A stretch of 64,000 bases of DNA from a virus: UHGV virus genome UHGV-0140522; one strand, written 5' to 3'. Each line of letters begins with the position of its first letter. Position 1 is the first letter of the stretch. The notes beneath the pieces are model-generated. The model saw only the letters and a program-made list of their open reading frames with translations. It had not been told where the DNA came from and did not search any database. The position numbers were made by a program, and so were the translations under genes. Positions 1,722 to 60,667 of the stretch are shown piece by piece.

Positions 1722-1838
1722 GTGCTTTGCTCGATAGGTAGTTACTTACTTATCATAATGAGCGAATCATAGCGACTGGAGACTGTTTTTGGAAGTGGAA
1801 ACGGAAGGGAATGTGTCTGGGAAGTTGGCATAGAAAAA

Positions 1839-1912
1839 GACCTGCTCCCGTATAAATAATAATAAGTAACTTAGTATTTATATACGAAAACAGGTTCACA
1901 GAAGTATAATTT
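1839..1912. repeat. hairpin element copy A (degenerate), immediately 3' of the KAP NTPase gene
   Basis: Imperfect inverted repeat cctgctcccgtataaata … tatttatatacgaaaacagg. The loop carries TAAGTAACTTAGTATT. Confidence 0.5.
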
Positions 1913-3616
1913 TTAAATTGTTTTAATAATATACCTTACCCTAAATTCATTTAAAGAAGACAATTTAGAAATCCTTACAAGTGCATCTTTGGCCTTTCTG
2001 GTTATCTGCTCTTGCTCACTGGTGGGATTAGTTAAGTTGTCAAATTTTAACAGACCATTTTTGACTAGATTCATCACATCTCGTTCACATGTTGTCATCC
2101 AATTGAAATAGTCATCCTCACTAAAATTATTCAAAGCATCAACATCTCTTGGGTTATAAGAATTGCCTGCACTTAGCTTAATTAGTATATCTTCTAAAGA
2201 AATCCCTTCATATTTAAGTGCAACGATTCGATTTTTAATGACACTTGACAATTTTTCAAAATTTATATGTGCATCTATTAAATCTGAATACGCTAAATTT
2301 ATATCACATCTTTCGAAAAATGCATCAGTATATTTCGTAATGTAGTCGTCACAATCTTCCCCTAGAGATTCCAACATTTCCATTAAACTGGATACCCTAC
2401 CCAATGGAAGATCACAAAGATTTTCTTCAAATAGCTTTTTAATTTCAGAAATAAAAACAAAATCATTCTTTGCAAAGGACCCAGTATAAATAGCCCAAAC
2501 ATCATTAACTTTATTATTCAATGTGATATTAGTATAATCTTTATTCTTCTTTTGGATTACTTCACCAAGATTACTTGCAGCGATTTTATAACCATGTTTT
2601 AGATGAAAGTCAATATCATCATCAAACACACCATCGCATCTATTAAAAACATCTTCGACATTACCTACAAATAGATGCACAGGTGTTTTGTTATCTACTT
2701 CATCGTCTGGAATGTAGTATGCATTTGTATTAATGAGAGTTTTGAACTCTTCGTAATCGACGTCATGAACCCCAGAATAGTAGACAAATGAAAATAAAGC
2801 TACTCTATTGACAAAGTCAGCTCTAACCTGTTCATGTGCTTCGCAAAGGTCTTTTTCATATTCTGCAAGCATATTTTTAATTTTAATTAATATCCGAATG
2901 TTTTTAATATCCAAATGCAATACAATTTCTTTTAAATATTTATAGTTTTTATCATTTTTAAAAAAAACTTTATCCAGGTTATCAATGGCCATTGGGGAAA
3001 ACATAATATCTAGATCTACAATTTTCTCTCTGTACTCTGAGAATTGTTTTTCCTCTTTTGTCCCCTTGAGATTGTTTTCATTATAAACCAGTATTATTTT
3101 ACAGTTTTTCTTTCGGGCTAACTCATCAATCAACCCCATGATATCCTTTATCTCTAAAGAGTTACCTTTTCTTTCTAAATCGTCAAAACAAATTACATAA
3201 TCCTTTACAAACGAATATTCAACAGCCGAAACAAAATTTCCCGCTCTAAAACCTATAGACGTATTGTCGAAATATTTTATAATGAACTTAGATAATCTAT
3301 TATATTTTAAACAATAACAAATTTTGGAAAGGAATTTCCCATTCACTATTTTATCTTGTTCGACAAGTGTCTGCCTATACTTTTTTTCATTTATTGGAGT
3401 CGCCAAATGAAATATTTCTTTCTTAATTTCATTTATTGAGTTTTTTCCAAAAAGAGAAATATATGAGTAAGCACTTTTATTTAGCGAATTAACATTTTTG
3501 TGATAGTACCCATTCCAAAAATGTGTTTTCCCTATCCCCCAATCACCTTTTATTACAGCAACCTTATTGTCTGAATTGAAAAAAGTGTTTAAGACTTCAT
3601 CCAAATTTATCATCAT
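1913..3616 (-). CDS. KAP-family P-loop NTPase (567 aa)
   Basis: The N-terminal motif VIKGDWGIGKTHF matches the KAP NTPase G-WG-GKT Walker A. The gene is strongly AT-rich compared with its flanks, which argues for horizontal acquisition. Confidence 0.6.
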   Translation of the reverse strand: MMINLDEVLNTFFNSDNKVAVIKGDWGIGKTHFWNGYYHKNVNSLNKSAYSYISLFGKNSINEIKKEIFHLATPINEKKYRQTLVEQDKIVNGKFLSKICYCLKYNRLSKFIIKYFDNTSIGFRAGNFVSAVEYSFVKDYVICFDDLERKGNSLEIKDIMGLIDELARKKNCKIILVYNENNLKGTKEEKQFSEYREKIVDLDIMFSPMAIDNLDKVFFKNDKNYKYLKEIVLHLDIKNIRILIKIKNMLAEYEKDLCEAHEQVRADFVNRVALFSFVYYSGVHDVDYEEFKTLINTNAYYIPDDEVDNKTPVHLFVGNVEDVFNRCDGVFDDDIDFHLKHGYKIAASNLGEVIQKKNKDYTNITLNNKVNDVWAIYTGSFAKNDFVFISEIKKLFEENLCDLPLGRVSSLMEMLESLGEDCDDYITKYTDAFFERCDINLAYSDLIDAHINFEKLSSVIKNRIVALKYEGISLEDILIKLSAGNSYNPRDVDALNNFSEDDYFNWMTTCERDVMNLVKNGLLKFDNLTNPTSEQEQITRKAKDALVRISKLSSLNEFRVRYIIKTI

Positions 3617-3638
3617 TTATGCTCTATTTGACAAATGT

Positions 3639-3663
3639 AAAAGGCGCCTCTCAGCGCCTTTTA
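3639..3663. terminator. symmetrical hairpin terminator between the parG-like stop and the KAP NTPase start
   Basis: aaaaggcgcc-tctca-ggcgcctttt, flanked by A/T runs on both sides. Confidence 0.6.
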
Positions 3664-3664
3664 C

Positions 3665-4024
3665 TTAACCTTTCTTCATCAGCTCACGCTTGATTTCATC
3701 GGTGCGCATCGTGACGTCGGCAGCGGTGATCGCCTCGTTCAGTTTCACGATGTCTTCGATTTCCTGCGGCGACTTCTCTGCCAGATGGAAAATGGCTGCG
3801 CGAATCACGTCAGAACGGGTGAACTTCTCGAAACGAGGGATGAACTTCATCATCTCCAGCAGATCGAAGTACTCGTCTTCCAGCGACATTGTGCGGCTCT
3901 TAATCTTCTCTTTCCCACGAGTCGGACGCCCCTGCGGTCTGACTGGCTGGCGCATTGGGGTGCTGCTTTTTACCGGTTCTTCCGGATCTTTGCGCTTTGC
4001 AAGGTCTCCCATTCTCATGGACAT
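3665..4024 (-). CDS. ParG-like partition DNA-binding protein (basic N-terminal tail plus C-terminal RHH-like fold)
   Basis: Its start overlaps the parA-like stop. The N-terminus is basic and looks disordered; the C-terminal segment (FTRSDVIRAAIFHLAEK) resembles a ribbon-helix-helix. Confidence 0.45.
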   Translation of the reverse strand: MSMRMGDLAKRKDPEEPVKSSTPMRQPVRPQGRPTRGKEKIKSRTMSLEDEYFDLLEMMKFIPRFEKFTRSDVIRAAIFHLAEKSPQEIEDIVKLNEAITAADVTMRTDEIKRELMKKG

Positions 4025-5109: not shown

Positions 5110-5379
5110 ATGTCAGCACTGAAAAAACAGCGCATCGATCTAAGATTAACTGACGACGACAAGAGCATGATCGAAGAAGCTGCGGCAATGACCAACCAGA
5201 CTATTACTCAGTTTATGGTTGCCAGCGCCTCTGAACGTGCTGCGGAAGTGATAGAGCAACATCGCCGCTTGATTCTCAGTGAAGAGTCCTGGAATCTGGT
5301 AATGGATGCCATCAGTAACCCGCCTGCACCGAACGATAGGCTGAAACGAGCTGCCAAACGTCTACAAAGCATGGAGTAA
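5110..5379 (+). CDS. DUF1778-type (TacA/KacA-like) RHH antitoxin
   Basis: An 89-aa protein lying 4 bp upstream of the GNAT toxin gene. Size and sequence character match the antitoxins of GNAT–RHH type II toxin–antitoxin pairs. Confidence 0.65.
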   Translation: MSALKKQRIDLRLTDDDKSMIEEAAAMTNQTITQFMVASASERAAEVIEQHRRLILSEESWNLVMDAISNPPAPNDRLKRAAKRLQSME

Positions 5380-5382
5380 GAC

Positions 5383-5907
5383 GTGGCCGACCTGACCATA
5401 GAGATGTTTTCAGCACAAGCCGTATACGATTTTTCTGGCTTCGACTGCGGCGAACCATCTCTGAATGATTTCCTGCAAAACCGCCTAGTACAGCAACACA
5501 ACGGGCGTATATTACGCGGCTACCTGCTTCTTACCAAAGATCCGGTGCCGAAAGTTAAGGGTTTTTACACGCTATCCGGGAGCTGTTTTGCAAGACAGAC
5601 GCTACCATCGAACACCCAGAAGCGGAAAATCCCCTACGCAGATGCACCCAGCGTTACGCTTGGCCGCCTGGCAATAGATATCAGCCTACAGAAACAAGGC
5701 TACGGTGAGGTTCTCGTAACGCACGCGTTGAAGGTTGTTTATCAGGCTTCTCGCGCAGTAGGCATATACGCTTTGTTTGTGGATGCACTAAACCAAAGCG
5801 CAATGCAGTTCTATCAGAAGTTTGGATTCATCCCTTTGACGGGGGCGAATGCGAACTCGCTTTTCTACCCCACGAAAAGCATTGAAGAGCTGTTTGAAAC
5901 AGAGTAA
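5383..5907 (+). CDS. GNAT acetyltransferase toxin (TacT/AtaT/KacT-like)
   Basis: A 174-aa GNAT with the motif GRLAIDxxxQxQGYG. It is tightly coupled to the upstream DUF1778-type gene and is followed by a strong terminator at 5910-5937. Confidence 0.7.
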   Translation: MADLTIEMFSAQAVYDFSGFDCGEPSLNDFLQNRLVQQHNGRILRGYLLLTKDPVPKVKGFYTLSGSCFARQTLPSNTQKRKIPYADAPSVTLGRLAIDISLQKQGYGEVLVTHALKVVYQASRAVGIYALFVDALNQSAMQFYQKFGFIPLTGANANSLFYPTKSIEELFETE

Positions 5908-7386: not shown

Positions 7387-7448
7387 GAATCGTCAAATCG
7401 GGATGGCTGTTTTATACCACAAATCACCCTTACATGGTAGGTAAGTAC

Positions 7449-8237
7449 TTACACACGAGCACCATAAATTGCACCGACTTTAGTCCATGTAGGCACGTTC
7501 CCCGTGACAGCCTTACCCGCCGCGCCACCTCCGTACATTGTCCCCAATCGTCCAGTGGCAGCGGCACCAGCAGCCCCCACATTACCTCCACTACCGCATG
7601 TGTATTGGACAGCAGTAGAGCCGATCAAATATTGAGCGCCAATCCCGGCAGCGGTTAGAGTGCCAGAAGTTGCCGCACGCGAATTTGAAGCTGGTGGCCT
7701 TGTAGTGTTTGCAACACCAAACGGGCGACCGCCCCCACCCATACCACCATCGGCTGAGTTACCGCCACCGCCACCGCCACCACCGGCAATAGCGCCGTTA
7801 TTGGTTATTCTTAAACGGGTCCCAATTCCGTTGTTAATAGCAGTGCCACCGGCAGCACCGCCACCTTTAACGCCACCATTACCGCCACGGCCATAGACAG
7901 TTACACCTGCGTTGATTACCAGGCTGATATAAGAGTTGGTAAGCGAACTTGGGAAATCTAAACATGGCACGCCGCTACTGTACGACACCAGATCCCCTGT
8001 AATGGTAACAACGACTGGTGTCGACCCCTGTGATTTTAAATAGTTGATCAGTGTGTCTTTGTTGTAGTTATGATTCGCACCGATGCTGTAATGAATTTCC
8101 GTAGAACGACCTGCTAACTGAGACATATTCCCAGCAGCAGACAATTGCACCGCAGTTCGAGCCGCGCTCATCCATCTCTGGCCGGTAACACTAACAGCCG
8201 AAGATCCAATCCAACCGGGAACACCGACAATTGGCAC
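7449..8237 (-). CDS. glycine-rich tail-associated protein
   Basis: A 262-aa protein with long poly-Gly and Gly-Ala runs, lying directly downstream of the tail-fibre gene. Confidence 0.4.
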   Translation of the reverse strand: MPIVGVPGWIGSSAVSVTGQRWMSAARTAVQLSAAGNMSQLAGRSTEIHYSIGANHNYNKDTLINYLKSQGSTPVVVTITGDLVSYSSGVPCLDFPSSLTNSYISLVINAGVTVYGRGGNGGVKGGGAAGGTAINNGIGTRLRITNNGAIAGGGGGGGGNSADGGMGGGGRPFGVANTTRPPASNSRAATSGTLTAAGIGAQYLIGSTAVQYTCGSGGNVGAAGAAATGRLGTMYGGGAAGKAVTGNVPTWTKVGAIYGARV

Positions 8238-12378: not shown

Positions 12379-12492
12379 ATTCTCTCCTTGAAAGGACGGG
12401 CATCCATGCCCGCCATAAGTAAGTACATACCTATATTACTTGTTATAAAAACGCTTTTCTACACTGCATAAAATAACAATTAACGCATTGAG

Positions 12493-19293: not shown

Positions 19294-19382
19294 CGTTTCT
19301 TCCTTGAAATAAAGAGGCGCCAACATCCTGTCAGCGCCTATAGATAATAGTAAATAAGTGCTTACTTATCTAGTGGGTTGAA

Positions 19383-19718
19383 TTATCCTTCATAAATTTG
19401 TCGGAAGGTCGCAGTGAGAACGAGATAGCCCTGGTAACGCTTCACAGTATGGCTGTCGCACACCACAACCATCTTTTTGCCACGAGGGTTCGTCCAGTAG
19501 AACGACTCAACGGCCGCGCGTGCCGTCAAAAAGTCATCGACGGCATTAATAACGTCGTAAGAGCGCGTAAATGTCAGGCTCCACTCTTCTTTAATGCGAT
19601 TGAGACCTTTGGCCTGGCGCTGTTCGTAATCGTCACCGAAATTCAGCACCGTCACGTTAGGCTTCACGGTCTTTTCCGACTCGTAGTCGGGATACCAGTT
19701 AAAAGTCAGTCTTTCCAT
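19383..19718 (-). CDS. minor tail protein (lambda M-like)
   Basis: A 111-aa protein lying between the tape-measure gene and the L-like gene. Confidence 0.6.
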   Translation of the reverse strand: MERLTFNWYPDYESEKTVKPNVTVLNFGDDYEQRQAKGLNRIKEEWSLTFTRSYDVINAVDDFLTARAAVESFYWTNPRGKKMVVVCDSHTVKRYQGYLVLTATFRQIYEG

Positions 19719-19759
19719 CTCACATCCTTGTGAGGCTGCCCCTTCCGGGGCAGCCGTGG

Positions 19760-22700
19760 TTAGTTACGTTGAGAGTTAGGGTTGAGCGAACCGCCTGGCC
19801 GCTTCTCCTGAGCGATGGTTTCAAGCGCGATCGCCTTCATGCGCTGCGCTGCCTGACTCCATGCGCCTTCGGAATTGCTGTTCTCCGAAACACTGCCGTC
19901 GCTGTTGACGTTGATCTCAATGCTGACAGGTGAGAAAACGCCGCCACCGCCGCCTTTAACACCCTCTGCGTTGAGCGTAACCGGGATGGAACGCCCATCC
20001 GGAAGCGGAACGTAGGCTTCGTTCATATCCCCTTCACCAAACAGCGCCAGCTGTGGAGAGTCAGCGATGCCACCTTTCTGGTACGCACGCAGCGGAACCA
20101 CGCCGTCTTTCCCGAAAATGCCGCCTTTGGCGAACTTCGGAATTGCCGGGATGCCGCCAGTACCATCAGATGCCGATCCGGTGAGATTGTTGAACCCGGA
20201 GTTAGAGCCGGAGGAACCCGATCCGATGTTGTCGAAGCCACCACCAGCCCAGGCAGACACCAGCCCAGAGGCAATGGTAGCGCCGAAGCTCAACCACTTA
20301 TTGCCAGAGCCGGACATGTTTGCTCCCAGCATGGCAAACGCGGCAGAAAGCGCCCCCGTGACAGAGCTAAGGTTCTGCATGGAGAAGATGGATGTCTTCA
20401 CCGCTTTGGTTTCCGCGTCTTTGGCTTCAGTACTGGTGAACAGTCCATTCACCCAGCTGCCGATCGCGTTGGTTGCAGAGCCAATCGCGCTGGTCGTCTG
20501 CTGAGTGGTCTGCCCCAGACCGGAGACCGAGCTGGAGGTCTCTTTCGTCGCCTCACCCACGCTCTTATCGCCGTTGACCGCATTCATCCGGACGCCCTGG
20601 TTGGCAACCGCTGATGCGACACCAGAAAGCAGATTGCCGCTCTGAGAGCTGCCCGCTGCCGTCGTTCCCATCCCCAGCATGTTCATGAGAGGCAGGGTGA
20701 TCTGCGTCTTCACAACCATGTTGGTGATGTCGCGGAGGATGGATTCTGCCAGGCTGGAGAAGTCCATTTTCCCCTTCATGACGAAGTCGGTCAGCGTATC
20801 CGTCATGTTGCTGAACAGGTTGCTCCAGCTGTTTTCCAGCTGATCGGCCAGATTCTCGTACTCAAGCGCCAGCTTCTGTGTCGCCGTACCCGTCTCTTTG
20901 ATGAGAGCGGTGTTGCCTGCCGCCACCAGCTGGTTAATCTGCTTGGTGTAAAGCGCCACGATTTTCGGATCAGAAGCCTGGTCACGCAGATCCATCAACG
21001 CTTTCAGGTTACGGTTGTAGGTGTCGTTGAAATCGGCCACCTTCTCTTCACGAGACGGCTTGTAACCCGCGCTGATGATGGAATCGGATTCCGGCGCCCA
21101 GGTGGAGATCATCTGCTCGACGTTGCGGCGGTTGAACATCTCGCGATAGTCGTCGCTCGCGTTAGCCAGGTCAGCCAGGCGTGACTTGGCTTTGTCGATC
21201 ATCTCCTGAGTGATGAACTCATTCGGTACGGCGTTGGCCAGTTCGGTCAGCGATTTGGTGGTATCGCGTAGAGACTGGTCAAACGACACGGTCGCTTTAG
21301 AGCTTTCACCCATCTGCCCCATAAGCTGATCGGCTTTATCCAGCGCTTTCTGGTAGCCGGCCGCCAGCTTACGCTGCGCATTTTCTTCCTTCCGTGCGGC
21401 ACGCTGAGAAGCATTGGCAGTACGCTGCCCGGCTTTTTCCGCAGCTGCGGCGTCCTGCTCACGCGCTTTGGTTAGTGCGGCGATCGCTGCTGCACGTTCC
21501 TCGTCGCTCATTTTCTCCAGAGAGCTGGCGCTGGAGGCTTTCTGCAGGTTCAGTTGGGTTTTGAGCTGCTTCGGCCCAATGATCGGCTTACCTTCGAAGT
21601 CCAGCATCGCCGTACCGTCTGGCAACGTGCGCTGATAGGTTGCGGAGTCCATCTGGTTGCGCATGTACTGCGCCAGAGCTTTCTGGGCCGCCTTGTCGCT
21701 CGTACCAAGCCCCAAAACGGTTCCCTGGTTGGACATGACACCCTTACCAGTTTTGGCAGCGTTATCACGCTCAAACTCGGCCTGAGTCAACTCCTGAGCG
21801 ACAGCTTCCAGATGCTCCTGATAGCCTCGAATACTGCCTTGTAGCTTCTGAATCTGCTCGGTATTGCCCTCTTTCTTCGCTTTTTCGAGCAGATCGTTGT
21901 AGTGGGCAATCTGCTTCTCGGTCGCGTTTTTACGGGAGGACAGTGAATCGACCAGTTTTTGCGCCGGTTCCAGGTATGACTTGTTCACCGTTTCACGGAG
22001 CGGTGCGAGAAGTTTGTTCTTCTCATCGTCAGACAGTGATTTGTCGTCATTGATTTTCTGGATCTTGTCCAGAGCCTCCTGACGTGCTTTCACAAATGTC
22101 GCAGAGAAGACCTGATTGTCGGCCCGGATTTTCTCAATCTGGGATTCTGCTGCCTCTTTAGCCAGACGTTTGGCTACAGCCCCGTCACCCAGCGCAATGG
22201 TGCCGGTAATCTTCTGGTACTCTTCCTGATTCTTCTTCAGGCGAGCCTCGATATCGGCTTTTGACTCTTTGTGAGTGACAGCGCCAACAGAGTTGGACAC
22301 ATAGCTCACGCTTTCGCCTGTTTTGAGCGCTCGCTGGTCTGCGATGATCTCTTTTTCGAGCTTTTCCGCACGCTCTGCCATCTGCGCACGTTTGGCCGCC
22401 GTCATCGCTTCCGGGATTTTGCGGATCTCGTCAACGACTTTTGACGTTTCGCTGCGGAGCATGGTCATATACGTGATAAGACCGGCTACAGCCACGGTAG
22501 CGACGGTGAACGCTGCACCAATGGGGTTTGCTGCGATGAACGCAGTTAGCCCAGCGAATGCCCCCTGTAACCCCGTGATCGCGCCACGGATAGCGAAGAT
22601 CAGCGATGGGATTGGAGCCAGACCCATACGAGCCGCACGATTAAAGCGGGTGACAGCTGTCGCGCCCAGATTGAACGGCGCCTGGATGACAGTCGACATC

Positions 22701-25824: not shown

Positions 25825-25898
25825 TGTTGGAAAACTCCTTTTTCCGTTAAATCAGCACCTTCATGGCGCTAATGGTAAGTATATACTTACTTATTTTA

Positions 25899-29465: not shown

Positions 29466-29498
29466 AAACAGTAGATAATTACTTACCTACTATACTGA

Positions 29499-31319: not shown

Positions 31320-32894
31320 TCACTCGGTCTCTTGAGTAGATGAGTCCCCATTCCCTCGGGGTTGATCATGCCCGCTTTCTTGGGCTGTATCTTGATCATA
31401 AGTAAGTACTGACTTATTTTCAAGGGTGTTAAGATCATTTTTTGGAGGAAATTTCAAGAGATCTTTTTGAAATTCCTTCTGCATCGCATCGGAAATGTTC
31501 GGGAAGACCTTCTCGATGAGCATTTCCATCTGATGACGACGAACAGAATCAGGCGCCTGAAGCAGCGACAGTTTCTCGGCAACGGCAAACTCGTCAGTCA
31601 GACCGCGAATGTCGAAACTTTCCGGGTATGCGATCAGAGAGTGGTCTTCATCCAGTTCGACACCCATCCATTTCGCTGCCAGTTGCATCATCTGGCGCTC
31701 TGCCCTTTCGAGACGTTCTGCTTTCGTCACCAGCAGACTGTTAACGCGCTGGAAGTCGTACATCTTCGCTGCGCCCGAAGAGTTATCGATGCCCTGTGCG
31801 TTATCCTGCTTGGTTCGCTCACCTGCCACGCCAACGGAATGGTAGATCTCGTTAATCACCGTCTTAATCGTGGTGATAATCATCTGGGCCTGTTTCGGGT
31901 CCGGAGACAGGTAGAATGGCTGATTACCGCTCTCAGAGTCGAAGGTGAAGACGCGTTTTGTCCCCATTTCGAGCACTTTGGTGTGGTTTTCATCGCCCGG
32001 CAGCAATGACTGAACCGGGATCGCCAGCTGGCTGAATGTCTGATCCTGAATAATCGCGTCAAGGTTCGACAGGTAGTTGGCCACGGCGCGATCAAGATAG
32101 GCGATATCGTCAATCAACGACGGGCTGAAATACGGAGACTCGCTTTCACCAATGCAATCCACCGGGAACACCGGCACCACGCCCAGATTATGCTGGCCGC
32201 TATCCTCCAGAACGACTTTGGCCTGACGGCGACCGCTATTTCCGGAACCTTTCTTCACTTCTTCACGGAACAGATACCACTCGTTTTGCGTCCACAGACG
32301 GTAACGCTGGTATTCCTGTCCGGTTGAAGTGAACGGATCTTCGTCGTCGCGCGCGATTTCAACAATTAGCGCCCACAACATATTGCCGTCTTCATCCCAG
32401 GCAACATCAAGCAGCTGCTGCGGCGAAATCCAGTATGCGTAGGCACGCGCATCATTTTTCTTCTCGTCTGCAACAGACTCAACATCGACGTTCATCGTGC
32501 TGTCCACGACAACCCAGATACGGCCATAAATGGATGATTGCAGATCGATAGCCGCCATAAACGCATCGATGGAGGCGTTCTGGCGCGTGGCTCGCTTCCA
32601 GAAATTGCGGATCTGCTCCGGTGCTTCATCAGTGTTGCGGTGAATGACCTCTTTGAAGAGGTATTTGTTGATGAGGTTTACCACTTCGCGCGTATGGTTG
32701 AAGCGATAAGCGCGTTCCAGGCGCTCTTTGAACTCCTGATCGCCCTCTTTGAAGTAACGGAAGATATTGTCGTTGAACCAGGCACGCCCGCCAGCGTAGG
32801 TGCTGGCGAGGAAGTCCCAATGTTCTTTTTTCTTCTCATATTCAGGGTGGCGTCGTGCCACAAGGTCTTTGATTTGCTTGTCAGTCAATTCCAT
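31320..32894 (-). CDS. portal protein
   Basis: A 524-aa protein immediately downstream of the terminase large subunit. Confidence 0.8.
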   Translation of the reverse strand: MELTDKQIKDLVARRHPEYEKKKEHWDFLASTYAGGRAWFNDNIFRYFKEGDQEFKERLERAYRFNHTREVVNLINKYLFKEVIHRNTDEAPEQIRNFWKRATRQNASIDAFMAAIDLQSSIYGRIWVVVDSTMNVDVESVADEKKNDARAYAYWISPQQLLDVAWDEDGNMLWALIVEIARDDEDPFTSTGQEYQRYRLWTQNEWYLFREEVKKGSGNSGRRQAKVVLEDSGQHNLGVVPVFPVDCIGESESPYFSPSLIDDIAYLDRAVANYLSNLDAIIQDQTFSQLAIPVQSLLPGDENHTKVLEMGTKRVFTFDSESGNQPFYLSPDPKQAQMIITTIKTVINEIYHSVGVAGERTKQDNAQGIDNSSGAAKMYDFQRVNSLLVTKAERLERAERQMMQLAAKWMGVELDEDHSLIAYPESFDIRGLTDEFAVAEKLSLLQAPDSVRRHQMEMLIEKVFPNISDAMQKEFQKDLLKFPPKNDLNTLENKSVLTYDQDTAQESGHDQPRGNGDSSTQETE

Positions 32895-32912
32895 TTGCTT
32901 TTCCTTTCCGTT

Positions 32913-32930
32913 TAGGTAAGTACTTACCTA
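32913..32930. promoter_or_regulatory. perfect 18-bp copy of the recurrent palindrome TAGGTAAGTACTTACCTA, between the terL stop and the portal start
   Basis: Exact palindrome. It is one of about 14 related intergenic sites (see findings). Confidence 0.55.
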
Positions 32931-34184
32931 TCTAGATCCGCCAAGAATAACACGATTTTTCACCGGATACCTACGATGAACCGGATAACCCAACGCATCC
33001 GCACTGTGTTCGATGCCGCCAGTCTTATCCATATCGCGTGAGCCTGGCTTGTAGATCACCTTCTCCAGCGAGTCGATGAGGTGTTTGCACTTCGGATCGA
33101 TGTACAACCGGGTTTCGCCCGAGGCACTCATCAACATGCGGTTCACTGCGTTAACACGGTCTGCGATCGGCGGGTGCTTCTTCGGATAATCGACTCGAAG
33201 GAAACCTTTTTCCTTGAAGATATCGACGTCCGATTCACCGCGTGCGTGCTGGCGATACGCACCTGCCGGGTCAGGGAAGATAGTGACCTGAGACTTCCAG
33301 CGCCAGAAACGACGCTCCAGCTCATCACACACTTCAGCCGTGTTGGAAGAGAACAGCACAACCTCGTCCACGGCCCACAGCTCACCATTTGGCTGCGGCT
33401 GCAGGATGACCGATGACATAGGGTCGATGTTGAAGTCCTGACCAACCCAGATCGGCAGTTTCGGATTGAACTGGAGTGGCTTCACATGCACATTGCGGTC
33501 GAACGGGTAGTAAACGCGTCCGGACATGTTTTCGAAGCTGGCCAGGTATTCCTGCGCGAACGATTTAGGGTCCATATCGTTCTTCGCCGCTTCGATTTCC
33601 GCGCTCGGTACGAACGGAGAATCGGCCGTAACGAACTGCCAGCTCTTCCACTGCCCTTTGCGTTGCAAATCTATGTTCTGACCGATAGTCCACAGCTTGT
33701 GGAACTCGGAGAAGCCTTTTGGCGTACCGATGATCAGCGCACCGCCACGGGTAGAGGACAGTGTCGGACGCAGTACCTTGTACCAGGTGTCAGGCTTCAT
33801 ATCCTGAAATTCATCGAGCACCACGAAGTGCAGTGCCACACCACGAAGCGTATCGGGCTTATCCGCACCTTTCAGCGCGATTTCAGAGCCGTTCTTCAGC
33901 ACAATGGTCATCGTGGTGTCGTTTTTCTTACGAACCCATTTACGAGGCAGAACTTCCTGCAGGTCATCCCACAAGATCTGGCGAGCCATCTGGTAAGTCG
34001 GTGCGACGTACCAGACACGTTGCTTTTTCTCTTTGGCTGCCGCGCGGATGATGGTGGAGATCGACAACCGGGATTTACCCCAGCGTCGACCCGCACACAC
34101 CACTTTGAAACGATGTGGTGACTGGAAGACTTGCATCTGCCCAGAATGCAGCTGTACGAGACTCAGAGACGACGGGATGGCCAT
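32928..34184 (-). CDS. terL: terminase large subunit
   Basis: Walker A (CAGRRWGKS) and Walker B (VVLDEFQD) motifs, with a C-terminal nuclease region. Confidence 0.85.
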   Translation of the reverse strand: MAIPSSLSLVQLHSGQMQVFQSPHRFKVVCAGRRWGKSRLSISTIIRAAAKEKKQRVWYVAPTYQMARQILWDDLQEVLPRKWVRKKNDTTMTIVLKNGSEIALKGADKPDTLRGVALHFVVLDEFQDMKPDTWYKVLRPTLSSTRGGALIIGTPKGFSEFHKLWTIGQNIDLQRKGQWKSWQFVTADSPFVPSAEIEAAKNDMDPKSFAQEYLASFENMSGRVYYPFDRNVHVKPLQFNPKLPIWVGQDFNIDPMSSVILQPQPNGELWAVDEVVLFSSNTAEVCDELERRFWRWKSQVTIFPDPAGAYRQHARGESDVDIFKEKGFLRVDYPKKHPPIADRVNAVNRMLMSASGETRLYIDPKCKHLIDSLEKVIYKPGSRDMDKTGGIEHSADALGYPVHRRYPVKNRVILGGSR

Positions 34185-34828: not shown

Positions 34829-34940
34829 AGATCCCTCTAAAACACTCAGAGCGCATCCTTGCGCTCCTAAACAACTTGTTTAATTCTGTGCCTAACCAAT
34901 TTGTTTTCTGGGTGTTTAAAACCGGGCTGGGGAGTATTCA

Positions 34941-37779: not shown

Positions 37780-38444
37780 ACCAGGGCTTCCCCGGCGTTC
37801 TCCATTTCGTTACCGGTATTGATTCCCTGCTCTTTGATGATGGTTTTGATGGTGTCGGCGACGCGATCTGACGCATCAAACGTCACTTTGAAGCGCATCG
37901 TCTGGTGTTCAGCGCCGACTCGCTCGGTTTTCTCGCGTTTGTCCTCATCGACCGGCTCGTCATCGCCACGGGAGAGCGCTTCCAGCGCTTCAAGATCGAT
38001 AACGGACGCTTTGGCGAGTGTTGCCGCCATTTCGTCGTCATACGGGGCGATATCGGACAACCGGTAGTCGATTTCAGACTGGATTTCTTCGATTAAGCGC
38101 TGCAAAGCGACCTGATCGTCTTCGCCGTAGCGTTCGTTATCGACGAGAGACATCTGTTTGGCCACCAGGTCGTTAATTTTGCCCACGGAGATGACGGGAA
38201 CCGTTGAAATGCCCTGCTCCATCGCGGCACGCCAGCGGTGTTCGCCACCGAGGATCTCAAAAATGCCCCCGTCCAGCTCCCGCGCCAGAATTGGCTTAAA
38301 AAAGCCCAATTTTTCGATCGAGCCTTTCAGTTTTTCGAAGTTTTGCGCCCCAACGGAGTTGGTATTCCAGGGATTCGGACGCAGGTTCGCGACTTCCACC
38401 TGCAGAATCGTAATTTTCACATCCATAATTCTGATACAATCCAT
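37746..38444 (-). CDS. ParB/Srx-like N-terminal domain protein
   Basis: ILGGEHRWRAAMEQG is a close match to ParB box II (GERRWRAA). Confidence 0.75.
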   Translation of the reverse strand: MDCIRIMDVKITILQVEVANLRPNPWNTNSVGAQNFEKLKGSIEKLGFFKPILARELDGGIFEILGGEHRWRAAMEQGISTVPVISVGKINDLVAKQMSLVDNERYGEDDQVALQRLIEEIQSEIDYRLSDIAPYDDEMAATLAKASVIDLEALEALSRGDDEPVDEDKREKTERVGAEHQTMRFKVTFDASDRVADTIKTIIKEQGINTGNEMENAGEALVWLVDYYKERM

Positions 38445-38508
38445 TGTATAAGTACTTACTTACTATAATAGCCAATTACCATACAAAAGGCACGAAGGAA
38501 AGAGGTTT

Positions 38509-40070: not shown

Positions 40071-40349
40071 ATGAGCGAGAAACGCGCTATACACTGCCAG
40101 GTTCAGTTAACCGAAAAAGCAAACGACAAGCTGGAAACCTTTCAGAATCGACTGCGTGAACGCAATATTAAGCTGTCAAAGGCAGACATCATCAATCTGG
40201 TGCTGTCCAACATGACGATGGCTGATTTTGATAAGGCAGCTACGTCATTAGAGGCTTCTGCAAAGGCCCGTGAAAAGGTCATGAAGATTTACGAATCCTC
40301 TGGCATGACCAAAGAAGATCTGGCCGATATTCTCAAACGTCTCGATTAA
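40071..40349 (+). CDS. small putative DNA-binding protein (RHH-like, 92 aa)
   Basis: Lies 3 bp downstream of the helicase gene. The N-terminal beta-strand plus helix pattern is consistent with a ribbon-helix-helix regulator. A weak terminator follows. Confidence 0.35.
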   Translation: MSEKRAIHCQVQLTEKANDKLETFQNRLRERNIKLSKADIINLVLSNMTMADFDKAATSLEASAKAREKVMKIYESSGMTKEDLADILKRLD

Positions 40350-42595: not shown

Positions 42596-42621
42596 AGCGC
42601 CCATAGTGGGCGCTTTTTTCG
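42596..42621 (+). terminator. rho-independent terminator (same stem as 42349-42375, loop inverted)
   Basis: agcgcccatagtgggcgct followed by TTTTTT. Confidence 0.7.
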
Positions 42622-43230
42622 TTTCAAGATCCGCACACCATAACGCGCCATTGTTGGCGCGTTTTTTATTGTCTGAAGTCAGCCAAAACAGACCCAAAAT
42701 AAGCGCCATAAACGCGCCAATTTAACGCGTTTTTATGTGTGGTGGTACATGCCCATTACCCACAATAAAAAACACGTTATAGCGCGTTTTACAGCGTTTT
42801 AGCGCGTGGCTTATTTTTTCGTGTCGTGGGCGTGATCGTCTGGCGATATCTGGCGACGTGATCCGCGCTATCCTTCGGGACGTGTCGGCAATATTGGCAT
42901 GATCCGTGGGCGCTCGCGTATCATTGGCACGTTGGCGTGACGTGTACGCGCTTGCAGTGGTTTACCCACGGATTCACATAATCACATAGCGAAAGCTATC
43001 TGGATGGCTCAGGGGCTGAAACCCCACCAGCGCTACCCCAGCGCCCCTGCGATATTTTCTGGCAGGATTCTGGGCTTCTCCCGCTCTGTTTTCTACATAA
43101 AGGCAAACCCAGCCGTTTCCCGAAAATTCCCTGGCCGTTTCCCTTCGGTTCCCCGGACAGCCCTCTGGCCGTTTCTGAATATCCCTGCGGCAGCTGGTGG
43201 ACGAAAAGAAAGGGGCGTTTCCAGCCCCTC
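42600..43230. repeat. repeat-rich non-coding region with three families of short repeats
   Basis: Repeat families ACGCGCC / GCGCGTTTT, CGTGATCCG and GCCGTTTCCC. No ORF is present. Confidence 0.5.
43203..43230 (-). terminator. rho-independent terminator after gene 43236..43718
   Basis: Stem aggggc / gcccct followed by a U-run on the minus-strand transcript. Confidence 0.55.
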
Positions 43231-44726: not shown

Positions 44727-44793
44727 TTTTTGGTCTCCCTGTTGTTGACCTGATTATATTATTGTCGTAGGTAAGCACTTACAATACAGGTAA

Positions 44794-50848: not shown

Positions 50849-50906
50849 GTGTTCACCTCTGATAAAGTGGCTCTATTCTTACATAAATTAGGTAAGTATT
50901 TACCTA

Positions 50907-52610
50907 TCATTTTACGCGTTTGAAAACGTATACGCTTACAGTGATTCCGGTGTCTTCAAACTCGTCAGTAAACGACTTCCCTTTGGCATAAACGTAATTA
51001 TCCAGCGTCATCCAGTTCAGAGCTGGCGCATCACCCGGCAGTACTGCCACCAGTCGCCCGCCGACTTTAAGATGCTCCAGCGCGGTCAGCGTATGCTCTC
51101 TGTGACGGCCAAGAGAGTAGGGCGGGTTCATGACGATTTTGTCGAACTGATAGCCTGCGTTGTCCTCAGACCACTTCATGAAGTCGCAGCAGACCGTATT
51201 TGTGTACCCCTTGCCAATCAGGATATCAGCGAAGAGAGGTGCGACTTCTATGCAGGTAACGTCTTCCGGATTGGCGTCGATGCAGGCCAACAGATCTCCG
51301 CGCCCGGCTTCAGGCTCCAGCAGCTTCTCACCTGACTTCAGCTCGATGGCTCTGGCAACGTACTCCGCTATCAAACGCGGGGTAGGGTAGAACTGGTGTG
51401 ATTTTGTATCCGGTATTAAGCCAGTGGCCACAATCGTATTTAGCGTATGACCGATCTCATACGGGAACTGCCAGTGCTTTTTCTCCTGCACACCGCCAAT
51501 GAAGTTCAGTGTGCGCTCAAGCTCTTCCACCTGTGACTTCTGTAGGTTGGAATCAGAGAAGTACCAGACGCCTTTGTCTTTGCTGAATCGCCCGTCGCGC
51601 AGCGCGGTACGAACCGGCTCGGAGATCGTCTTCTGGATTAACCCGAACTCTTTTGGTGCCGGTGTTTTGGGTGCAGTACGGCATGGCGCCGGGATTGCTG
51701 CAGGCATACTGTAAGCCAGCACCTCATTCAGCTTCCAGGCCACGTCAGGATGTATTTCAAAGTGAACGTTGCCGTTCTTGAACATCTTCACGCGCATCAG
51801 GTTTCCGTCGACATTCATCCAGTCACCGGTCTGGCAGTCGTTTGCCCGGTACGCAGCTGATAGCATCTCAGTTGTGCGGTTGATGGTGATGAACTCTTTG
51901 TGCGCGAAGAAATGAAGCATGACGCGCAGATCGTCGATGTAGTCCTCTTTCCGGTAGTTCACGCTCACGCTGTCCCGCCAGAACTCGGAAATGAAGTTGG
52001 CGATGATCAGACGCTCGCTAAAGCCGTTCGTCTTATTGGTCTTGTGGGCAGGACTCAGCGCCTTAAACAAGCCATACACGCGCTCAGAGAGATATTTGTG
52101 CCTGTCATTCAGCAGATTGAGCATCGTGGGGATGACCGTTTCTGCTTTGAACTCCGGCACGCCAACGAACTCCTTAACCTTCATCTGGTAGCCGGTTCTG
52201 TCAGTCCTGATGGTTTCCTGTTTGCCTTCGATGAACTGCTCACGCCACTCGTCGCGGCGGGAAGCTGGCATGATCAGCAGAACGTTTGTCATATCCGTGA
52301 CCTTCTTCCAGTACTCGGCCCAGATATTCTGTTTCACCCATTCAAGGTCGACCTTGTCCAGCCAGGCTCTGTTAAAGCGTGTGCGCTCGTCATCCGGCCG
52401 GTGGTTGAGTCGCAGTAGGCGGTTAATCATGTTGTGGCGTTCGTCGCCATAAATGAAGTCGTGAACCTGATGCATGAATGCGATCTCTTTCTCGCACTCG
52501 GCCACAATTTCGTGGATGACGTTCATTTCCTGCCGGTAGTCGATATCAGTGTTTGGGGTGATAGCGTCAATGATAGAAAGAGCTGTATTCATGATTGCAC
52601 CATTAAACAA
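50907..52610 (-). CDS. N6-adenine DNA methyltransferase with an N-terminal extension of about 380 aa of unknown function
   Basis: The C-terminal domain has motif I (LEPEAGRGDL) and motif IV (NPPY, in VMNPPYS). The real start is probably the ATG at about 52592 rather than the TTG at 52610. Confidence 0.7.
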   Translation of the reverse strand: MFNGAIMNTALSIIDAITPNTDIDYRQEMNVIHEIVAECEKEIAFMHQVHDFIYGDERHNMINRLLRLNHRPDDERTRFNRAWLDKVDLEWVKQNIWAEYWKKVTDMTNVLLIMPASRRDEWREQFIEGKQETIRTDRTGYQMKVKEFVGVPEFKAETVIPTMLNLLNDRHKYLSERVYGLFKALSPAHKTNKTNGFSERLIIANFISEFWRDSVSVNYRKEDYIDDLRVMLHFFAHKEFITINRTTEMLSAAYRANDCQTGDWMNVDGNLMRVKMFKNGNVHFEIHPDVAWKLNEVLAYSMPAAIPAPCRTAPKTPAPKEFGLIQKTISEPVRTALRDGRFSKDKGVWYFSDSNLQKSQVEELERTLNFIGGVQEKKHWQFPYEIGHTLNTIVATGLIPDTKSHQFYPTPRLIAEYVARAIELKSGEKLLEPEAGRGDLLACIDANPEDVTCIEVAPLFADILIGKGYTNTVCCDFMKWSEDNAGYQFDKIVMNPPYSLGRHREHTLTALEHLKVGGRLVAVLPGDAPALNWMTLDNYVYAKGKSFTDEFEDTGITVSVYVFKRVK

Positions 52611-53612: not shown

Positions 53613-53858
53613 GCAATAGCCTCAGTCACAGCAGAAGGAAGATCCGGAGTTGCAGGTCGAGCTGGAATCGTGTCCAGCAGCATCCCATCCAGAGAGACAG
53701 GGGGTCGTTCTGGCAGTGGTGTCGTCTGCAGGGTTGTAGTGGAAGTAGTTGTGTCCGGTATCAACAGACTCTGACCGGCTGGTACGGCTACCGCTGCCAG
53801 GGTTGCTAAAATTACTCCGTAGGCCATTGGCTTCAGTCGATTTCGTTGAAAATTTTCC
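53609..53858 (-). CDS. signal-anchored Thr/Pro-rich small protein
   Basis: Internal start MENFQRNRLKP followed by a TM segment. It overlaps the 53622..54116 ORF in another frame. Confidence 0.3.
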
Positions 53859-54116
53859 ATGAGAACTGTCCTTGTGTGCCTGGGATTCACGCAACACACG
53901 AGAGGCGACGGAATCACGCACCTTCTCCATGCCTACTGTCGCGCCCAGATTTGCTATGGCGGTAGCTTGCGCATCAATGCGCTTCTCCAGCTCAAACACT
54001 CGTTCTTCCAGTTCCGCAAGGCGTGCAGAAACACAACCGCTAAACAGCTCGGCCAGAACCAGGCGAATTGAACGGGGACGTTTATTGAAAGAAGTGAAAG
54101 GCGTTTGACGTGCCAT
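53622..54116 (-). CDS. coiled-coil protein (3' extent uncertain; the C-terminal third looks non-coding)
   Basis: The N-terminal 80 aa are coiled-coil-like. The C-terminal part is low-complexity and overlaps a better ORF in another frame. Confidence 0.3.
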   Translation of the reverse strand: MARQTPFTSFNKRPRSIRLVLAELFSGCVSARLAELEERVFELEKRIDAQATAIANLGATVGMEKVRDSVASRVLRESQAHKDSSHGKFSTKSTEANGLRSNFSNPGSGSRTSRSESVDTGHNYFHYNPADDTTARTTPCLSGWDAAGHDSSSTCNSGSSFCCD

Positions 54117-54240: not shown

Positions 54241-54272
54241 AAAATGATAGGTAAATACTTACCTATCATTTT
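54241..54272. promoter_or_regulatory. extended 32-bp copy of the palindrome, AAAATGATAGGTAAATACTTACCTATCATTTT
   Basis: The longest copy. It defines the extended consensus and lies about 125 bp upstream of the gene starting at 54116. Confidence 0.55.
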
Positions 54273-58813: not shown

Positions 58814-58819
58814 GGGATA

Positions 58820-59439
58820 AAGATGAGGTGGTTCGCAGGCCTGGGTAATAGTTGGAAAACAACGTCCGCTCCTGGCACATTGAAGACATTACGATGGGCG
58901 ATTTTTCCCCTCACGCGTGTGCGTAAATATTAAAATTTTTTCTAGAAAAGAAAAACTTACTTCCCAGAACAGGTTTTAATAAAACCTGAACTGAACGAAC
59001 GAAGTGAGTGAAGTTCACCTCGAACGAAGTGAGAGGTTGTCTTTTCAGGTAATACTCTCCCAGGGAGGTGAGTACAAAATTCCCTCACCAACCTGGTCGT
59101 TACATAACCTGAAAAGTTATGACCTAAGTCTACTGCCAGCTTAGGCTTGGGAAGTTATGGATGACAGCACCCCAGAACCGAGATCTTCCCACACTTTATG
59201 AAGGGGAGTACTGGATTCAACCTCTCGAAACACTCCAGACTCGACAATCATAAAGTGACCTTTCTCTCTGCCCACTTTGGTTCCCCCTTCCCCAACCCCT
59301 AAACGGTGCTGGTTCTACGCTGGTAGTGAGCTTTTTTAAACCTGACGCCAGTGACGCTATCCCCCACCCATCAGGTCGAGCTGCCGGAATCAATCCGGAA
59401 AGCGGGTAGATTTTATCACTGGCGATCTGCGTTTTAAAT
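58820..59439. other. structured non-coding region of about 600 bp
   Basis: No ORF. It contains several short inverted repeats (gtgaag-ttcac, ctccc-a-gggag, ggtgag…ctcacc) and a duplicated cgaacgaagtgag. Confidence 0.4.
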
Positions 59440-59455
59440 GGTAAGTACTTACCGA

Positions 59456-59686
59456 TTATTTCGATTGATTATTTTCTCGACCATGAAGCTGGACGTTCAG
59501 GGCAAACACCTCATTGATGAGTTCCCCTAACAGCTGCTCGACCAGCTCTTTGTGCTCACCTGAGTGAAGGCACTTGAGCGACCATTCGTAGAGACTGAAA
59601 GCCTTATCGCGATCTTTCATCATGTCGCGTACTTTGGTCAGAAAATCGCTCTCAACGAGCGCTACGACGTTCGTCGGGTATACCAT
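59456..59686 (-). CDS. hypothetical protein (76 aa)
   Basis: ORF only. Confidence 0.35.
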   Translation of the reverse strand: MVYPTNVVALVESDFLTKVRDMMKDRDKAFSLYEWSLKCLHSGEHKELVEQLLGELINEVFALNVQLHGRENNQSK

Positions 59687-59802
59687 GATAGTTTTCCTTA
59701 CTGTGGTTCATAAAATCGATTCTAGAGCGTCTGGAGAGGGGTTCCAGTGGGTTCTGGAGGTGTAAAACGGTCTGGGAGTTGTTTGGAAATCACGTCTTAA
59801 AA

Positions 59803-59888
59803 AGCCTGCGTCTGTATATATTAATAATTAGTACTTAGTTATTTATATATACGGAAGCAGGTTCTCAAACTAACTCCCAGACTGGTGT
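59803..59888. repeat. hairpin element copy C, immediately 3' of the dam gene
   Basis: cctgcgtctgtatatat - loop taataattagtacttagttattt - atatatacggaagcagg, followed by the tail tcaaactaactcccagact. Confidence 0.55.
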
Positions 59889-60506
59889 TTACGCTGCCTT
59901 TTTACGTGGTCTCTTCTTCCTGACAACATTGGCAGGATCATAACCACCCAGCTTTTTCATCACCGCCAGCGGTATCTTGCTGATGGTGTGCCCAGCTTCC
60001 TGACAGTAGCCACGGAAGATAAGCAACATGCTACCACCAGGGTTGATGTTCACCTCCACCAGCCCAAGTTCAACATCCGGCTCAACGAACGCCACGCGGC
60101 CGCCAGACAAGATGACGGTTTCGTTGGCGCATTCAGCCGCACGCTCGTACCACTGCGTATCGAGGGATTGTGGTATCAACATGACTGTCGTCACTCCACG
60201 CGCCTGCTCGCGAATGGCTGCGTCTATCCAGGGGGTGATTTTGGAGTAGGGCGGGTTAAGGAACGCCACAGTGCCAGGTTCTCCCCAGCTGCACTTGAGC
60301 GCATCACGCTCAACACCGATAAAGTTCGGCAGGAGGGCATTATCTTTGTTGCAGGCGACGTCCACATCGAACTTTACGCCTATGTAACGTTGGATGGCGA
60401 CAAACAACCACTGCGGTGTGCGCCAAAGGTCGCGAAGAGAGGCATCACGCTCTCGCTTTTTGATTTTTTCGGCTGCGATCATTACTTTGTTCTGATAGGT
60501 AAACAC
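59889..60506 (-). CDS. dam: phage Dam-type N6-adenine DNA methyltransferase
   Basis: NPPY motif (AFLNPPYS) in a protein of about 200 aa. The start is uncertain (GTG at 60506 or ATG near 60480). Hairpin element copy C lies immediately 3'. Confidence 0.8.
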   Translation of the reverse strand: MFTYQNKVMIAAEKIKKRERDASLRDLWRTPQWLFVAIQRYIGVKFDVDVACNKDNALLPNFIGVERDALKCSWGEPGTVAFLNPPYSKITPWIDAAIREQARGVTTVMLIPQSLDTQWYERAAECANETVILSGGRVAFVEPDVELGLVEVNINPGGSMLLIFRGYCQEAGHTISKIPLAVMKKLGGYDPANVVRKKRPRKKAA

Positions 60507-60667
60507 TTACCTATTTTTTCATTTAATCCAACGGATAGCAAACAAAGAAGAACGCGCCAGATCCGCAAACGGGAAGCTCTCTGGCGCGTTTTATCGATGC
60601 TGGGTATGCGATTAGCTTACCCAGCGTCCTAAAGCTCTCAGGGGGCTTTAGATCGGGTAGGGGAACA

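Follow-up and report, generated by a model that had tools for sequence, protein, structure and literature searches.

What reads a palindrome that recurs about 14 times in 64,000 nucleotides (nt) of viral DNA, and what does it do to the genes beside it? The stretch in question comes from UHGV virus genome UHGV-0140522 (its full length is called the window here) and is a piece of an SSU5-like phage-plasmid. The original prediction, drawn from the sequence of the window, saw in the repeats either a site for a phage-encoded dimeric regulator, be it an operator or an activator site, or a core late-promoter element. Our analysis favors the operator: taken as a whole, the palindrome is probably a double-stranded DNA site for a homodimeric helix–turn–helix (HTH) repressor of the phage, with a 128-amino-acid (128-aa) protein of the XRE family, encoded outside the window, as the most probable candidate. 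Both the binding to the palindrome and the sign of the regulation are points that we infer.

The palindrome and its conservation

The window is 99.8% identical to the Citrobacter plasmid pRHBSTW-00524_2 (NZ_CP056422.1, 112.6 kb; window coordinate = NZ_CP056422.1 coordinate − 32758, valid to ~55 kb), 96–99% identical to Salmonella phage SSU5, and ~82% identical to Escherichia coli phage Cyrano and Klebsiella phage-plasmids, and 839 plasmid records in PLSDB match part of it. A copy of the palindrome is present at each of the 14 positions first reported. The core GGTAAGTACTTACC, allowing up to two mismatches, occurs 9 times against 0.07 expected, a number reached by 0 of 100 shuffles, and the 20-mer ATAGGTAAGTACTTACCTAT, allowing up to five mismatches, has 12 matches against 0.03 in Markov-simulated sequence. 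A symmetrized weight matrix at a score of at least 17 returns exactly these 14 sites in the window and none besides, and 26 sites on the whole plasmid, a 112 kb replicon. The conserved unit is larger than the 14-mer of the original prediction: it is a palindrome of 20–24 bp, (TG)ATA(A/G)GTAAGTACTTAC(T/C)TAT(CA), with a 20-base consensus of ATA(G/A)GTAAGTACTTAC(C/T)TAT, two TA-containing tetrads in each half-site, and A/T-rich, symmetric flanks. Across 71 aligned sites from three genomes, the alignment used for all profile and pairing counts given here, T at −5 and A at +4 are invariant.

Thirteen of the 14 sites are mostly non-coding (binomial p ~6e-11, given that 86% of the window is coding). 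The copies are therefore not strictly confined to intergenic gaps, as was first claimed: that at 31398–31417 lies in the portal gene, within its 3′ end. Measured from the palindrome edge, the following ATG is 12–130 nt away (12 nt at 1734 and 60495, 17 nt at 32912), and not 20–100 bp as in the original prediction; the copy at 38444 abuts the annotated start of a ParB-like gene, no gene follows closely at 59437, and in four cases the palindrome runs across the preceding gene's stop codon. On the whole plasmid, the genes downstream of the sites serve replication, nucleotide metabolism, recombination, structure, and lysis alike, and sites also precede nrdA, thyX, dam, SSB, and ligase-region genes.

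Cyrano carries 21 sites and Klebsiella oxytoca pCAV1099-111, which shows ~72% nucleotide identity over one short aligned segment, carries 24, and orthologous copies persist in relatives of 72–83% nucleotide identity. Copies stand at orthologous junctions in the Cyrano, K. oxytoca, Serratia, and Photorhabdus relatives, the shared junctions being terminase–portal, inside portal, capsid–decoration, those before the tail tube, protein L, tail fiber, and holin genes, ParB–helicase, dam, nrdA, and thyX. In an alignment of the window, Cyrano, and K. oxytoca, identity is 79% in the motif columns versus 63% in the flanks, and substitutions differ by lineage, which indicates that the copies are maintained and not merely inherited. 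A scan of IMG/VR for the exact 18-mer found matches only on SSU5-like contigs.

The palindrome behaves as a site in duplex DNA. When each of the 71 sites was scored as a hairpin on either strand, Watson–Crick, G–U, and mismatched pairs numbered 469/55/186 on the gene strand and 469/57/184 on the other. One paired position comprises 45 G–C, 15 G–T, 10 A–C, and 1 A–T, and no compensatory pairs were found among the 71 sites. As each half-site varies independently of the other, neither strand is favored, compensation is absent, and the information profile is symmetric, we read the palindrome as duplex DNA contacted by a symmetric dimer.

Position relative to promoters and expression in a lysogen

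Contrary to the original description of gaps with no obvious sigma-70 promoter, several gaps hold sigma-70-like promoters that overlap the palindrome. Predicted promoters that are both overlapped and conserved across lineages are found at four sites. The copy at 31398..31417 forms the 17-bp spacer of the scaffold-gene promoter, TTGAAA (31423-31418), 17 nt, TATGAT (31400-31395) on the minus strand, which matches the consensus at 10 of 12 positions and whose conservation extends to K. oxytoca. Before the gene for the Ig-domain tail protein, the copy at 25875..25894, whose center (GGTAAGTATATACTTAC) is 4 bp longer than usual in every lineage, covers the spacer and −10 of a minus-strand promoter seen in all lineages, TTGAAT (25907-25902), 18 nt, TATACT (25883-25878). 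The copy at 44767..44786 comes after a terminator and is separated by 8 nt from a minus-strand TATAAT (44758-44753), which places its center at ~−30. Finally, the copy at 50888..50907, after the DUF4942 methyltransferase gene, is centered at ~−29 and is followed by a conserved extended −10, TGTAAGAAT (50883-50875, minus), which reads TGTA(T)AAGA(A)T in Cyrano and K. oxytoca. Palindrome-linked promoters in Cyrano include TTGAAA-17-TATCAT and TTTACA-17-TAGTAT.

Across sites, the center of the palindrome ranges from inside the −10 to ~−45, and no element at a fixed distance from it emerges from the aligned profile, bar a weak TT(G/T)A at −23 to −20. A promoter element of fixed geometry was rejected on this profile, which holds only the symmetric palindrome and that weak signal. 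A −10-like TAnnnT stands beside the core on the gene side at 8 of the 14 sites and on the opposite side at 9; being equally common on both sides, it is part of the palindrome. Three copies (32912, 1734, and 60495), 12–17 nt from a start codon, have no credible promoter. The idea of a core late-promoter element is not supported, as sites also precede replication and nucleotide-metabolism genes, no distance to a −10 is fixed, and several sites overlap a near-consensus −10 or spacer. Such variable, often promoter-occluding positions are those of a repressor operator, unlike upstream activating sites. Together with the duplex-DNA symmetry they bear out the part of the original prediction that named an operator for a phage-encoded dimeric regulator, which is the best reading of the palindrome: we hold it very likely that the palindrome is the operator of a phage-encoded dimer, and likely that its regulation is mainly repression.

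Published RNA-seq data that cover each gene of Cyrano in a lysogen of LF82 (PMC9928086, supplementary table; we read its column labels as LB overnight, and as 1 h and 6 h with or without macrophages) allow these positions to be compared with transcription. In LB, the lytic genes of Cyrano are at background, the XRE “putative repressor” CYRAN_45 is at 10 times background, and toxin–antitoxin and partition genes are clearly expressed. Units that start at occluding sites are at background in LB, and at 6 h in macrophages they step up by 1.2–3.7 log2 over the gene just before them (CYRAN_12 +2.5, CYRAN_34 +2.4, CYRAN_56 +3.6, CYRAN_60 +3.7, CYRAN_107 +1.3, CYRAN_4 +1.2); CYRAN_12, the orthologue at the 25875 site, opens an induced transcription unit. 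At junctions where the palindrome precedes a terminator, levels drop in 3 of 4 cases (CYRAN_6 −3.0, CYRAN_17 −1.9, CYRAN_69 −1.0) and rise by 0.75 at CYRAN_21, and the transcript level falls across the Cyrano junction orthologous to 29471. The unit with a palindrome at −45, the CYRAN_81 region orthologous to the 59437 unit, is active in the lysogen, at 12 times above background.

Could the palindrome instead serve as an activator site or promoter element for middle and late lytic units, resembling the Lpa-dependent late promoters of phage P1? Sites do open several lysogen-silent units that rise under stress, a good −35 element is absent from many gaps, and the palindrome centers near −42 (holin) and −45 (59437) are typical class II and class I/II positions. 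P1 late promoters depend on Lpa and have an inverted repeat centered at −22, and here too a palindrome lies upstream of, or overlaps, −10 boxes before late genes of a phage-plasmid. However, unlike those promoters, the 71 aligned sites show no fixed −10 spacing, and sites accompany early and late genes alike and the repressor gene too, with some standing before terminators or beside start codons; positions 12–17 nt from an ATG or directly before a terminator are incompatible with an upstream activating site. Several sites also overlap the −10 or fill the 17–18 bp spacers of near-consensus promoters that should need no activator, the palindrome follows the −10 in the Rhizobium phage V1VFA-S, and copies sit on the −35 and start of the repressor gene itself, in an immunity region where a second palindromic repeat family was not found. 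We therefore regard an activator site as improbable.

The XRE protein as candidate repressor

If the palindrome is an operator, which protein binds it? The gene for the 128-aa XRE-family protein (WP_000224608.1) adjoins the integrase gene (19555-19941 of NZ_CP056422.1, ~13 kb outside the window). Upstream of it lies a conserved predicted promoter, TTTACA-16-TAATAT; one motif copy covers the −35, and a near-perfect core, GGTAAGCACTTACC, falls on the predicted transcription start. The 290-bp immunity region of the Photorhabdus relative holds three motif copies and no other repeated palindrome that we could find, and that of K. oxytoca holds four weaker copies. Among the immunity regions examined, we found no further family of palindromic repeats in common. 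The gene divergent from the XRE repressor is not Cro-like. The XRE family is confined to ~100–116 kb replicons of the SSU5-like type. An AF2 model of the protein (pLDDT 78) predicts a five-helix lambda-repressor-like domain, with Stl, C.AhdI, C.BclI, lambda cI, and 434 Cro as the best fold matches. Its Pfam HTH_31 score falls below the cut-off, PHROGs classifies it as a transcriptional regulator, a sequence search against PDB chains gave no match, and no S24 self-cleavage domain was found in it.

Comparison with Rhizobium phages of ~115–120 kb, which are syntenic distant relatives of the window element, links this protein to the motif. The common gene order runs from terminase to tail, DnaB and primase, ligase, RepC, XRE, CobT and CobS, DNA polymerase III, and ParB–helicase, and the Rhizobium-phage sites lie at orthologous junctions, some then followed by terminator hairpins. 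In the enteric phage-plasmids (~26 sites), the half-site is ATA(A/G)GTAAG, and XRE residues 28, 37, and 39 are Q, Y (F in K. oxytoca), and N. V1VFA-S has ~38 sites of the form (N)TAAGTAAG-nnn-CTTACTTA(N), with the same half-site as the enteric elements and Q/Y/N at these residues. In RHEph10, Y2_11, and N1_10, the motif is AGTCAGTCAATATTGACTGACT (half-site AGTCAGTCAAT; 33 sites in RHEph10) and the residues are H/W/Q. The recognition helix NNLS(L/M)IK is almost invariant among enteric XRE proteins, whose overall identity is as low as ~39–47%. The XRE proteins of V1VFA-S and RHEph10 are the closest pair overall (41% versus ~35% to the enteric proteins), so that the HTH residues covary with the motif and against overall protein relatedness. 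In V1VFA-S, at least 7 copies come directly after a TATAAA box (TCCC, ~15 nt, GCGCTATAAA) and before a Shine–Dalgarno (SD) sequence, and are therefore at the transcription start. On these grounds, we consider the XRE protein the probable binder of the palindrome.

Two side observations come from V1VFA-S. A promoter-like unit recurs in V1VFA-S, consisting of TCCC-~15 nt-GCGCTATAAA, the palindrome, and GGAG (e.g., 2935-2996, 85654-85715, 100721-100782). In addition, the gene order of these phages includes, between CobS and DNA polymerase III, a sigma-70-family factor that seems to be missing from the enteric relatives.

SSU5 offers a further comparison. No tblastn match to the XRE protein was found in SSU5, where CobT comes directly after a tRNA and neither integrase nor XRE is annotated between the two (interval 42596-42761); the counterpart interval in the Citrobacter plasmid (NZ_CP056422.1 19078-24815) and in Cyrano holds the integrase, XRE, phoH, grxA, and a 70-aa gene. 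SSU5 retains the palindromes, the gene for the 92-aa protein that the original prediction took for RHH-like (40071-40349 in the window), the winged-HTH (wHTH) gene, and the ParB-like genes. SSU5 is described as a virulent phage (PMC5427195), and the lack of an integrase–XRE module fits that description. SSU5_116, a “putative repressor-like protein,” is absent from the window and the other relatives.

The same palindrome could be an operator bound by a different phage protein, namely the 92-aa protein, the 88-aa wHTH protein (35024-35290), or a ParB-like protein, the first two of which were the regulators originally proposed. In favor of the 92-aa protein, its orthologue CYRAN_117 is expressed at 12 times background in lysogens, a palindrome in its operon promoter could mean autoregulation, and its N-terminus may be read as a strand–helix–helix motif. 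Yet it is kept, as are the wHTH and ParB-like genes, in an SSU5 that lacks XRE and is described as virulent; it has no Pfam DNA-binding domain, and no clear homologue was found in RHEph10 or in the Rhizobium relatives that have the system. The wHTH protein is unlikely as a lysogenic repressor, as its orthologue CYRAN_123 is at background in lysogens and it lacks the pattern in which V1VFA-S equals the enteric elements and RHEph10 differs. The two ParB N-terminal-domain proteins encoded beside one site have no detected HTH domain, and their Cyrano orthologues (CYRAN_119 for the ParB-like protein) are likewise at background. Overall, we give a binder of this kind little chance.

There is very little to recommend an RNA hairpin in polycistronic transcripts, acting as a processing site, translational operator, or weak terminator. 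Many copies do lie 12–60 nt before starts or at gene ends, and some stand beside or inside the loops of terminator-like hairpins. The window also encodes an FljA-like protein, and FljA binds mRNA and thereby represses its translation. We rejected a hairpin because the pairing counts for the two strands reveal neither compensatory changes nor G–U strand asymmetry and because no Rfam family matches anywhere in the window; the stem is AT-rich, where a structured RNA or intrinsic terminator would be expected to have a GC-rich stem with a U run, the flanks are symmetric, and copies in divergent promoter regions or upstream of a −35 would have no useful transcribed orientation. Equally remote is recognition by a host DNA-binding protein, or a role in partition or nucleoid organization of the ParB–parS or KorB type (plasmid RK2 KorB uses dispersed palindromes), for although the motif is nearly identical in phage-plasmids of many enterobacterial genera and two ParB N-terminal-domain proteins are encoded next to one site, these genes are silent in lysogens with no recognizable HTH domain, a separate small ParA system is present on the element, the exact 18-mer is restricted to SSU5-like contigs in IMG/VR, and a host factor is excluded because two Rhizobium-phage groups of one host genus use different motifs, one of them the enteric motif.

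Several observations weigh against an operator bound by the XRE repressor. About half of the window sites lack a recognizable promoter, and three precede terminators, a position in which it is not obvious what an operator would do; the terminator-adjacent and in-loop copies, in enteric and Rhizobium lineages, have no explanation in the operator model. The holin site (~−42) and 59437 (~−45) are at positions typical of activators. The helicase and 92-aa operon is expressed in lysogens despite a palindrome in its promoter, and the lysogen-expressed 92-aa protein is itself a possible binder. The covariation amounts to three specificity groups only. The operator is nearly constant in all enteric relatives, whereas phage immunity systems normally diversify. 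Finally, a contrast over all Cyrano genes, with versus without an upstream site, is not significant (p = 0.07–0.6), so the RNA-seq evidence is illustrative and not statistical, and only the individual steps are informative.

With these reservations, a repressor model can be outlined. In the plasmid (lysogenic) state, XRE dimers would occupy ~26 operators across the replicon and keep the lytic blocks off. Where the operator lies in the spacer or −10, or near −30 (25875, 31398, 44767, 50888, 38444), the dimer would block RNA polymerase, and loss or inactivation of XRE would release the ~26 units. Copies without a promoter (32912, 1734, 60495) or before a terminator (12415, 19350, 29471) might, more speculatively, be roadblocks or extra anchoring sites, and those at −42 and −45 (7437, 59437) might be neutral or even aid polymerase. 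A broader version is possible but doubtful: an ancient, family-wide silencing grid, from enteric phage-plasmids to Rhizobium phages, in which XRE occludes promoters, acts as a roadblock at promoter-less copies (within operons, beside start codons, and shortly before terminators), and activates lysogen-expressed transcripts from −42/−45 in the manner of lambda CI at PRM, and in which ~30 operators and their repressor switched specificity together at least once (RHEph10 lineage).

How does such a system compare with known ones? P1 is also a plasmid prophage, and its C1 repressor acts at many operators over a ~100-kb genome, controlling many separate lytic functions and not a single early region. 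The dispersed operators of the present phage-plasmid, ~26 sites over 112 kb, resemble this arrangement. Unlike in P1, where operators are asymmetric 17-mers and C1 is large and unrelated, the site here is a 20–24 bp palindrome, the candidate is a 128-aa protein with an XRE-type HTH, and the sites run through the structural-gene region too. The stoperators of L5 and other Cluster A phages (repressor gp71) number in the dozens and occupy short intergenic gaps of early and late operons, often at stop codons and some without promoters. The sites described here likewise occur in short gaps of early and late operons, including promoter-less ones (32912, 1734, 60495). However, stoperators are asymmetric 13-mers that are oriented with transcription and block elongation, whereas the sites here are palindromic with symmetric flanks, so orientation relative to transcription cannot be scored, and a roadblock role is speculative. 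As the sites of the P1 and L5 families are asymmetric and their repressors unrelated, the present system is a member of neither.

The lambdoid CI/Cro systems (lambda, 434, P22) share with it a palindromic operator with half-sites about one helical turn apart, a lambda-repressor-like HTH (modeled here), and operators that overlap the repressor gene's own promoter (predicted here), and a copy near −42/−45 would be compatible with positive control as at lambda PRM. Unlike lambdoid phages, which have 6 operators in two clusters, the phage-plasmid has ~26 dispersed single sites; the candidate also lacks the S24 self-cleavage domain, and its divergent gene is not of the Cro kind. The chemistry of protein and site is thus of the lambdoid CI/Cro type, and the mode of working is like that of P1 C1 and the Cluster A stoperators.

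In the searchable literature, we found no description of the motif or of lysogeny control in SSU5-like elements. SSU5-like phage-plasmids are common in clinical and environmental Enterobacteriaceae, and phage-plasmids are described as frequent carriers of resistance genes (PMC9600943). A defined operator and candidate repressor would give a map of ~26 lytic transcription units, allow prediction of which elements share immunity, and provide a handle for inducing, curing, or engineering these plasmids. The Rhizobium relatives would add an example from nature in which a repressor changed its specificity in concert with ~30 operators.

Other sites and neighboring features

Genes in the window are mostly on the minus strand. 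The block from terminase to the tail fiber and lysis genes runs from ~34.8 kb down to 6.3 kb (minus), followed by ParA; the ParB-like operon occupies 35.3–38.4 kb (minus) and the helicase block 38.5–42.3 kb (plus), and small genes and DNA-metabolism genes lie beyond 43 kb. The palindrome at 38444..38463 falls in the divergent region between the ParB-like operon (minus) and the operon of the helicase and 92-aa genes (plus), abutting a plus-strand TATAAT (38464-38469) before the latter, and the same divergent region holds copies in Cyrano, K. oxytoca, and RHEph10.

The promoter-less copies include the best core, TTAGGTAAGTACTTACCTAT at 32912..32931, which overlaps the large terminase stop codon before the portal gene, has no promoter visible in the window, and is a candidate intra-operon site. 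The copy ATAGGTAGTTACTTACTTAT at 1734..1753 precedes gene 996-1721 (minus) and has orthologues in Cyrano and K. oxytoca, and that at 60495..60514 precedes the adenine methyltransferase gene (dam); each lies 5′ of the ATG with no convincing promoter.

At three junctions, a GC hairpin directly follows the palindrome (two with a T run) and precedes the next ribosome-binding site. The copy at 12415..12434, between the tail protein and tail-fiber genes, is followed on the gene strand by a hairpin at 12414-12395, then an SD sequence and an ATG at 12378. Upstream of the minor tail protein L gene, the copy at 19350..19369 is overlapped by a weak promoter-like TAGATA-17-TATTAT and followed by a terminator-like hairpin (19339-19315, minus). 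The copy at 29471..29490 lies between the major capsid stop codon and an intrinsic terminator with a T run (29463-29447, minus), with the decoration/Ig gene next.

Two copies stand upstream of promoters. At 7437..7456, the palindrome, which precedes the holin-like gene, runs across the stop codon of 7449-8237, with a conserved extended −10, TGnTATAAA (7419-7411, minus), 20 nt downstream, so that its center is at ~−42. At 59437..59456, it is immediately upstream of a strong, conserved minus-strand promoter, TTTAAA (59438-59433), 17 nt, TGATAAAAT (−10 at 59415-59410), with its center at ~−45. The region driven by this promoter (~59410-58900, minus) has no open reading frame of at least 60 codons, and ~59390-59330 is highly conserved between lineages; the transcript may be a non-coding RNA, with no Rfam match in the window scan.

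The longest copy is a perfect 32-bp palindrome (14+4+14), AAAATGATAGGTAAATACTTACCTATCATTTT, at 54241..54272 in a divergent gap, with its 20-mer core at 54247-54266. Downstream on the minus strand are a conserved TGTATCTTA-like element and a terminator (54166-54146). Between this palindrome and gene 53622-54116 lie ~90 conserved nt with internal hairpins (54240-54140, minus) ending in the strong terminator, a stretch that, judged by its sequence, could be a leader or small RNA.

As originally noted, degenerate copies occur in the loops of three long hairpins: a shortened copy, AATAAGTAACTTAGTATTTAT, at 1857..1881 in the hairpin 1841-1894, and equivalent loop copies at 34961-34982 and 59821-59845 in the hairpins 34937-35005 and 59805-59861. 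Each hairpin consists of the arm CCTGCTTCCGTATATAT, a loop, and the arm ATATATACGGAAGCAGG, with a T run on the gene strand after two of them. The middle hairpin (34937-35005) falls where the linear records of SSU5 and Cyrano end and therefore may be at or near the packaging site. In RHEph10, some palindromes likewise lie within the loops of terminator-like hairpins.

A second, unrelated palindrome, GAAAACAAGTTGTTTA, is also repeated: AAACA-N3-TGTTT occurs 15 times on the plasmid versus 0.24 expected, with centers in the window at 53334, 52611, 49477, 49161, 48783, 48732, 47163, 45776, 45186, 44231, 43739, 34875, 4731, and 961. On the minus strand, it usually lies ~11 nt after a GATAAT −10 box and just before an SD sequence, mostly before small genes at 43–53 kb and also before the small terminase gene and parA. 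SSU5 has one copy in place of the missing immunity region, before CobT. From its sequence context, this motif looks like a separate regulon or a 5′ untranslated region (5′-UTR) element. The FljA-like protein mentioned above (175 aa, 40835-41362, plus) has a Pfam match to Flag1_repress (E = 1e-96), the family of FljA, repressor of phase-1 flagellin, and is assigned to a PHROG annotated as a transcriptional repressor; it could regulate flagellin expression in the host, or its binding site might be the AAACA-N3-TGTTT 5′-UTR motif. At the other end of the window, a gene for a 567-aa P-loop NTPase (1913-3616, minus) lies in a patch (~2000-4000) of 34% GC versus ~52% elsewhere and looks like acquired cargo, possibly a defense gene, and a DUF1778/GNAT toxin–antitoxin pair is encoded at 5110-5907.

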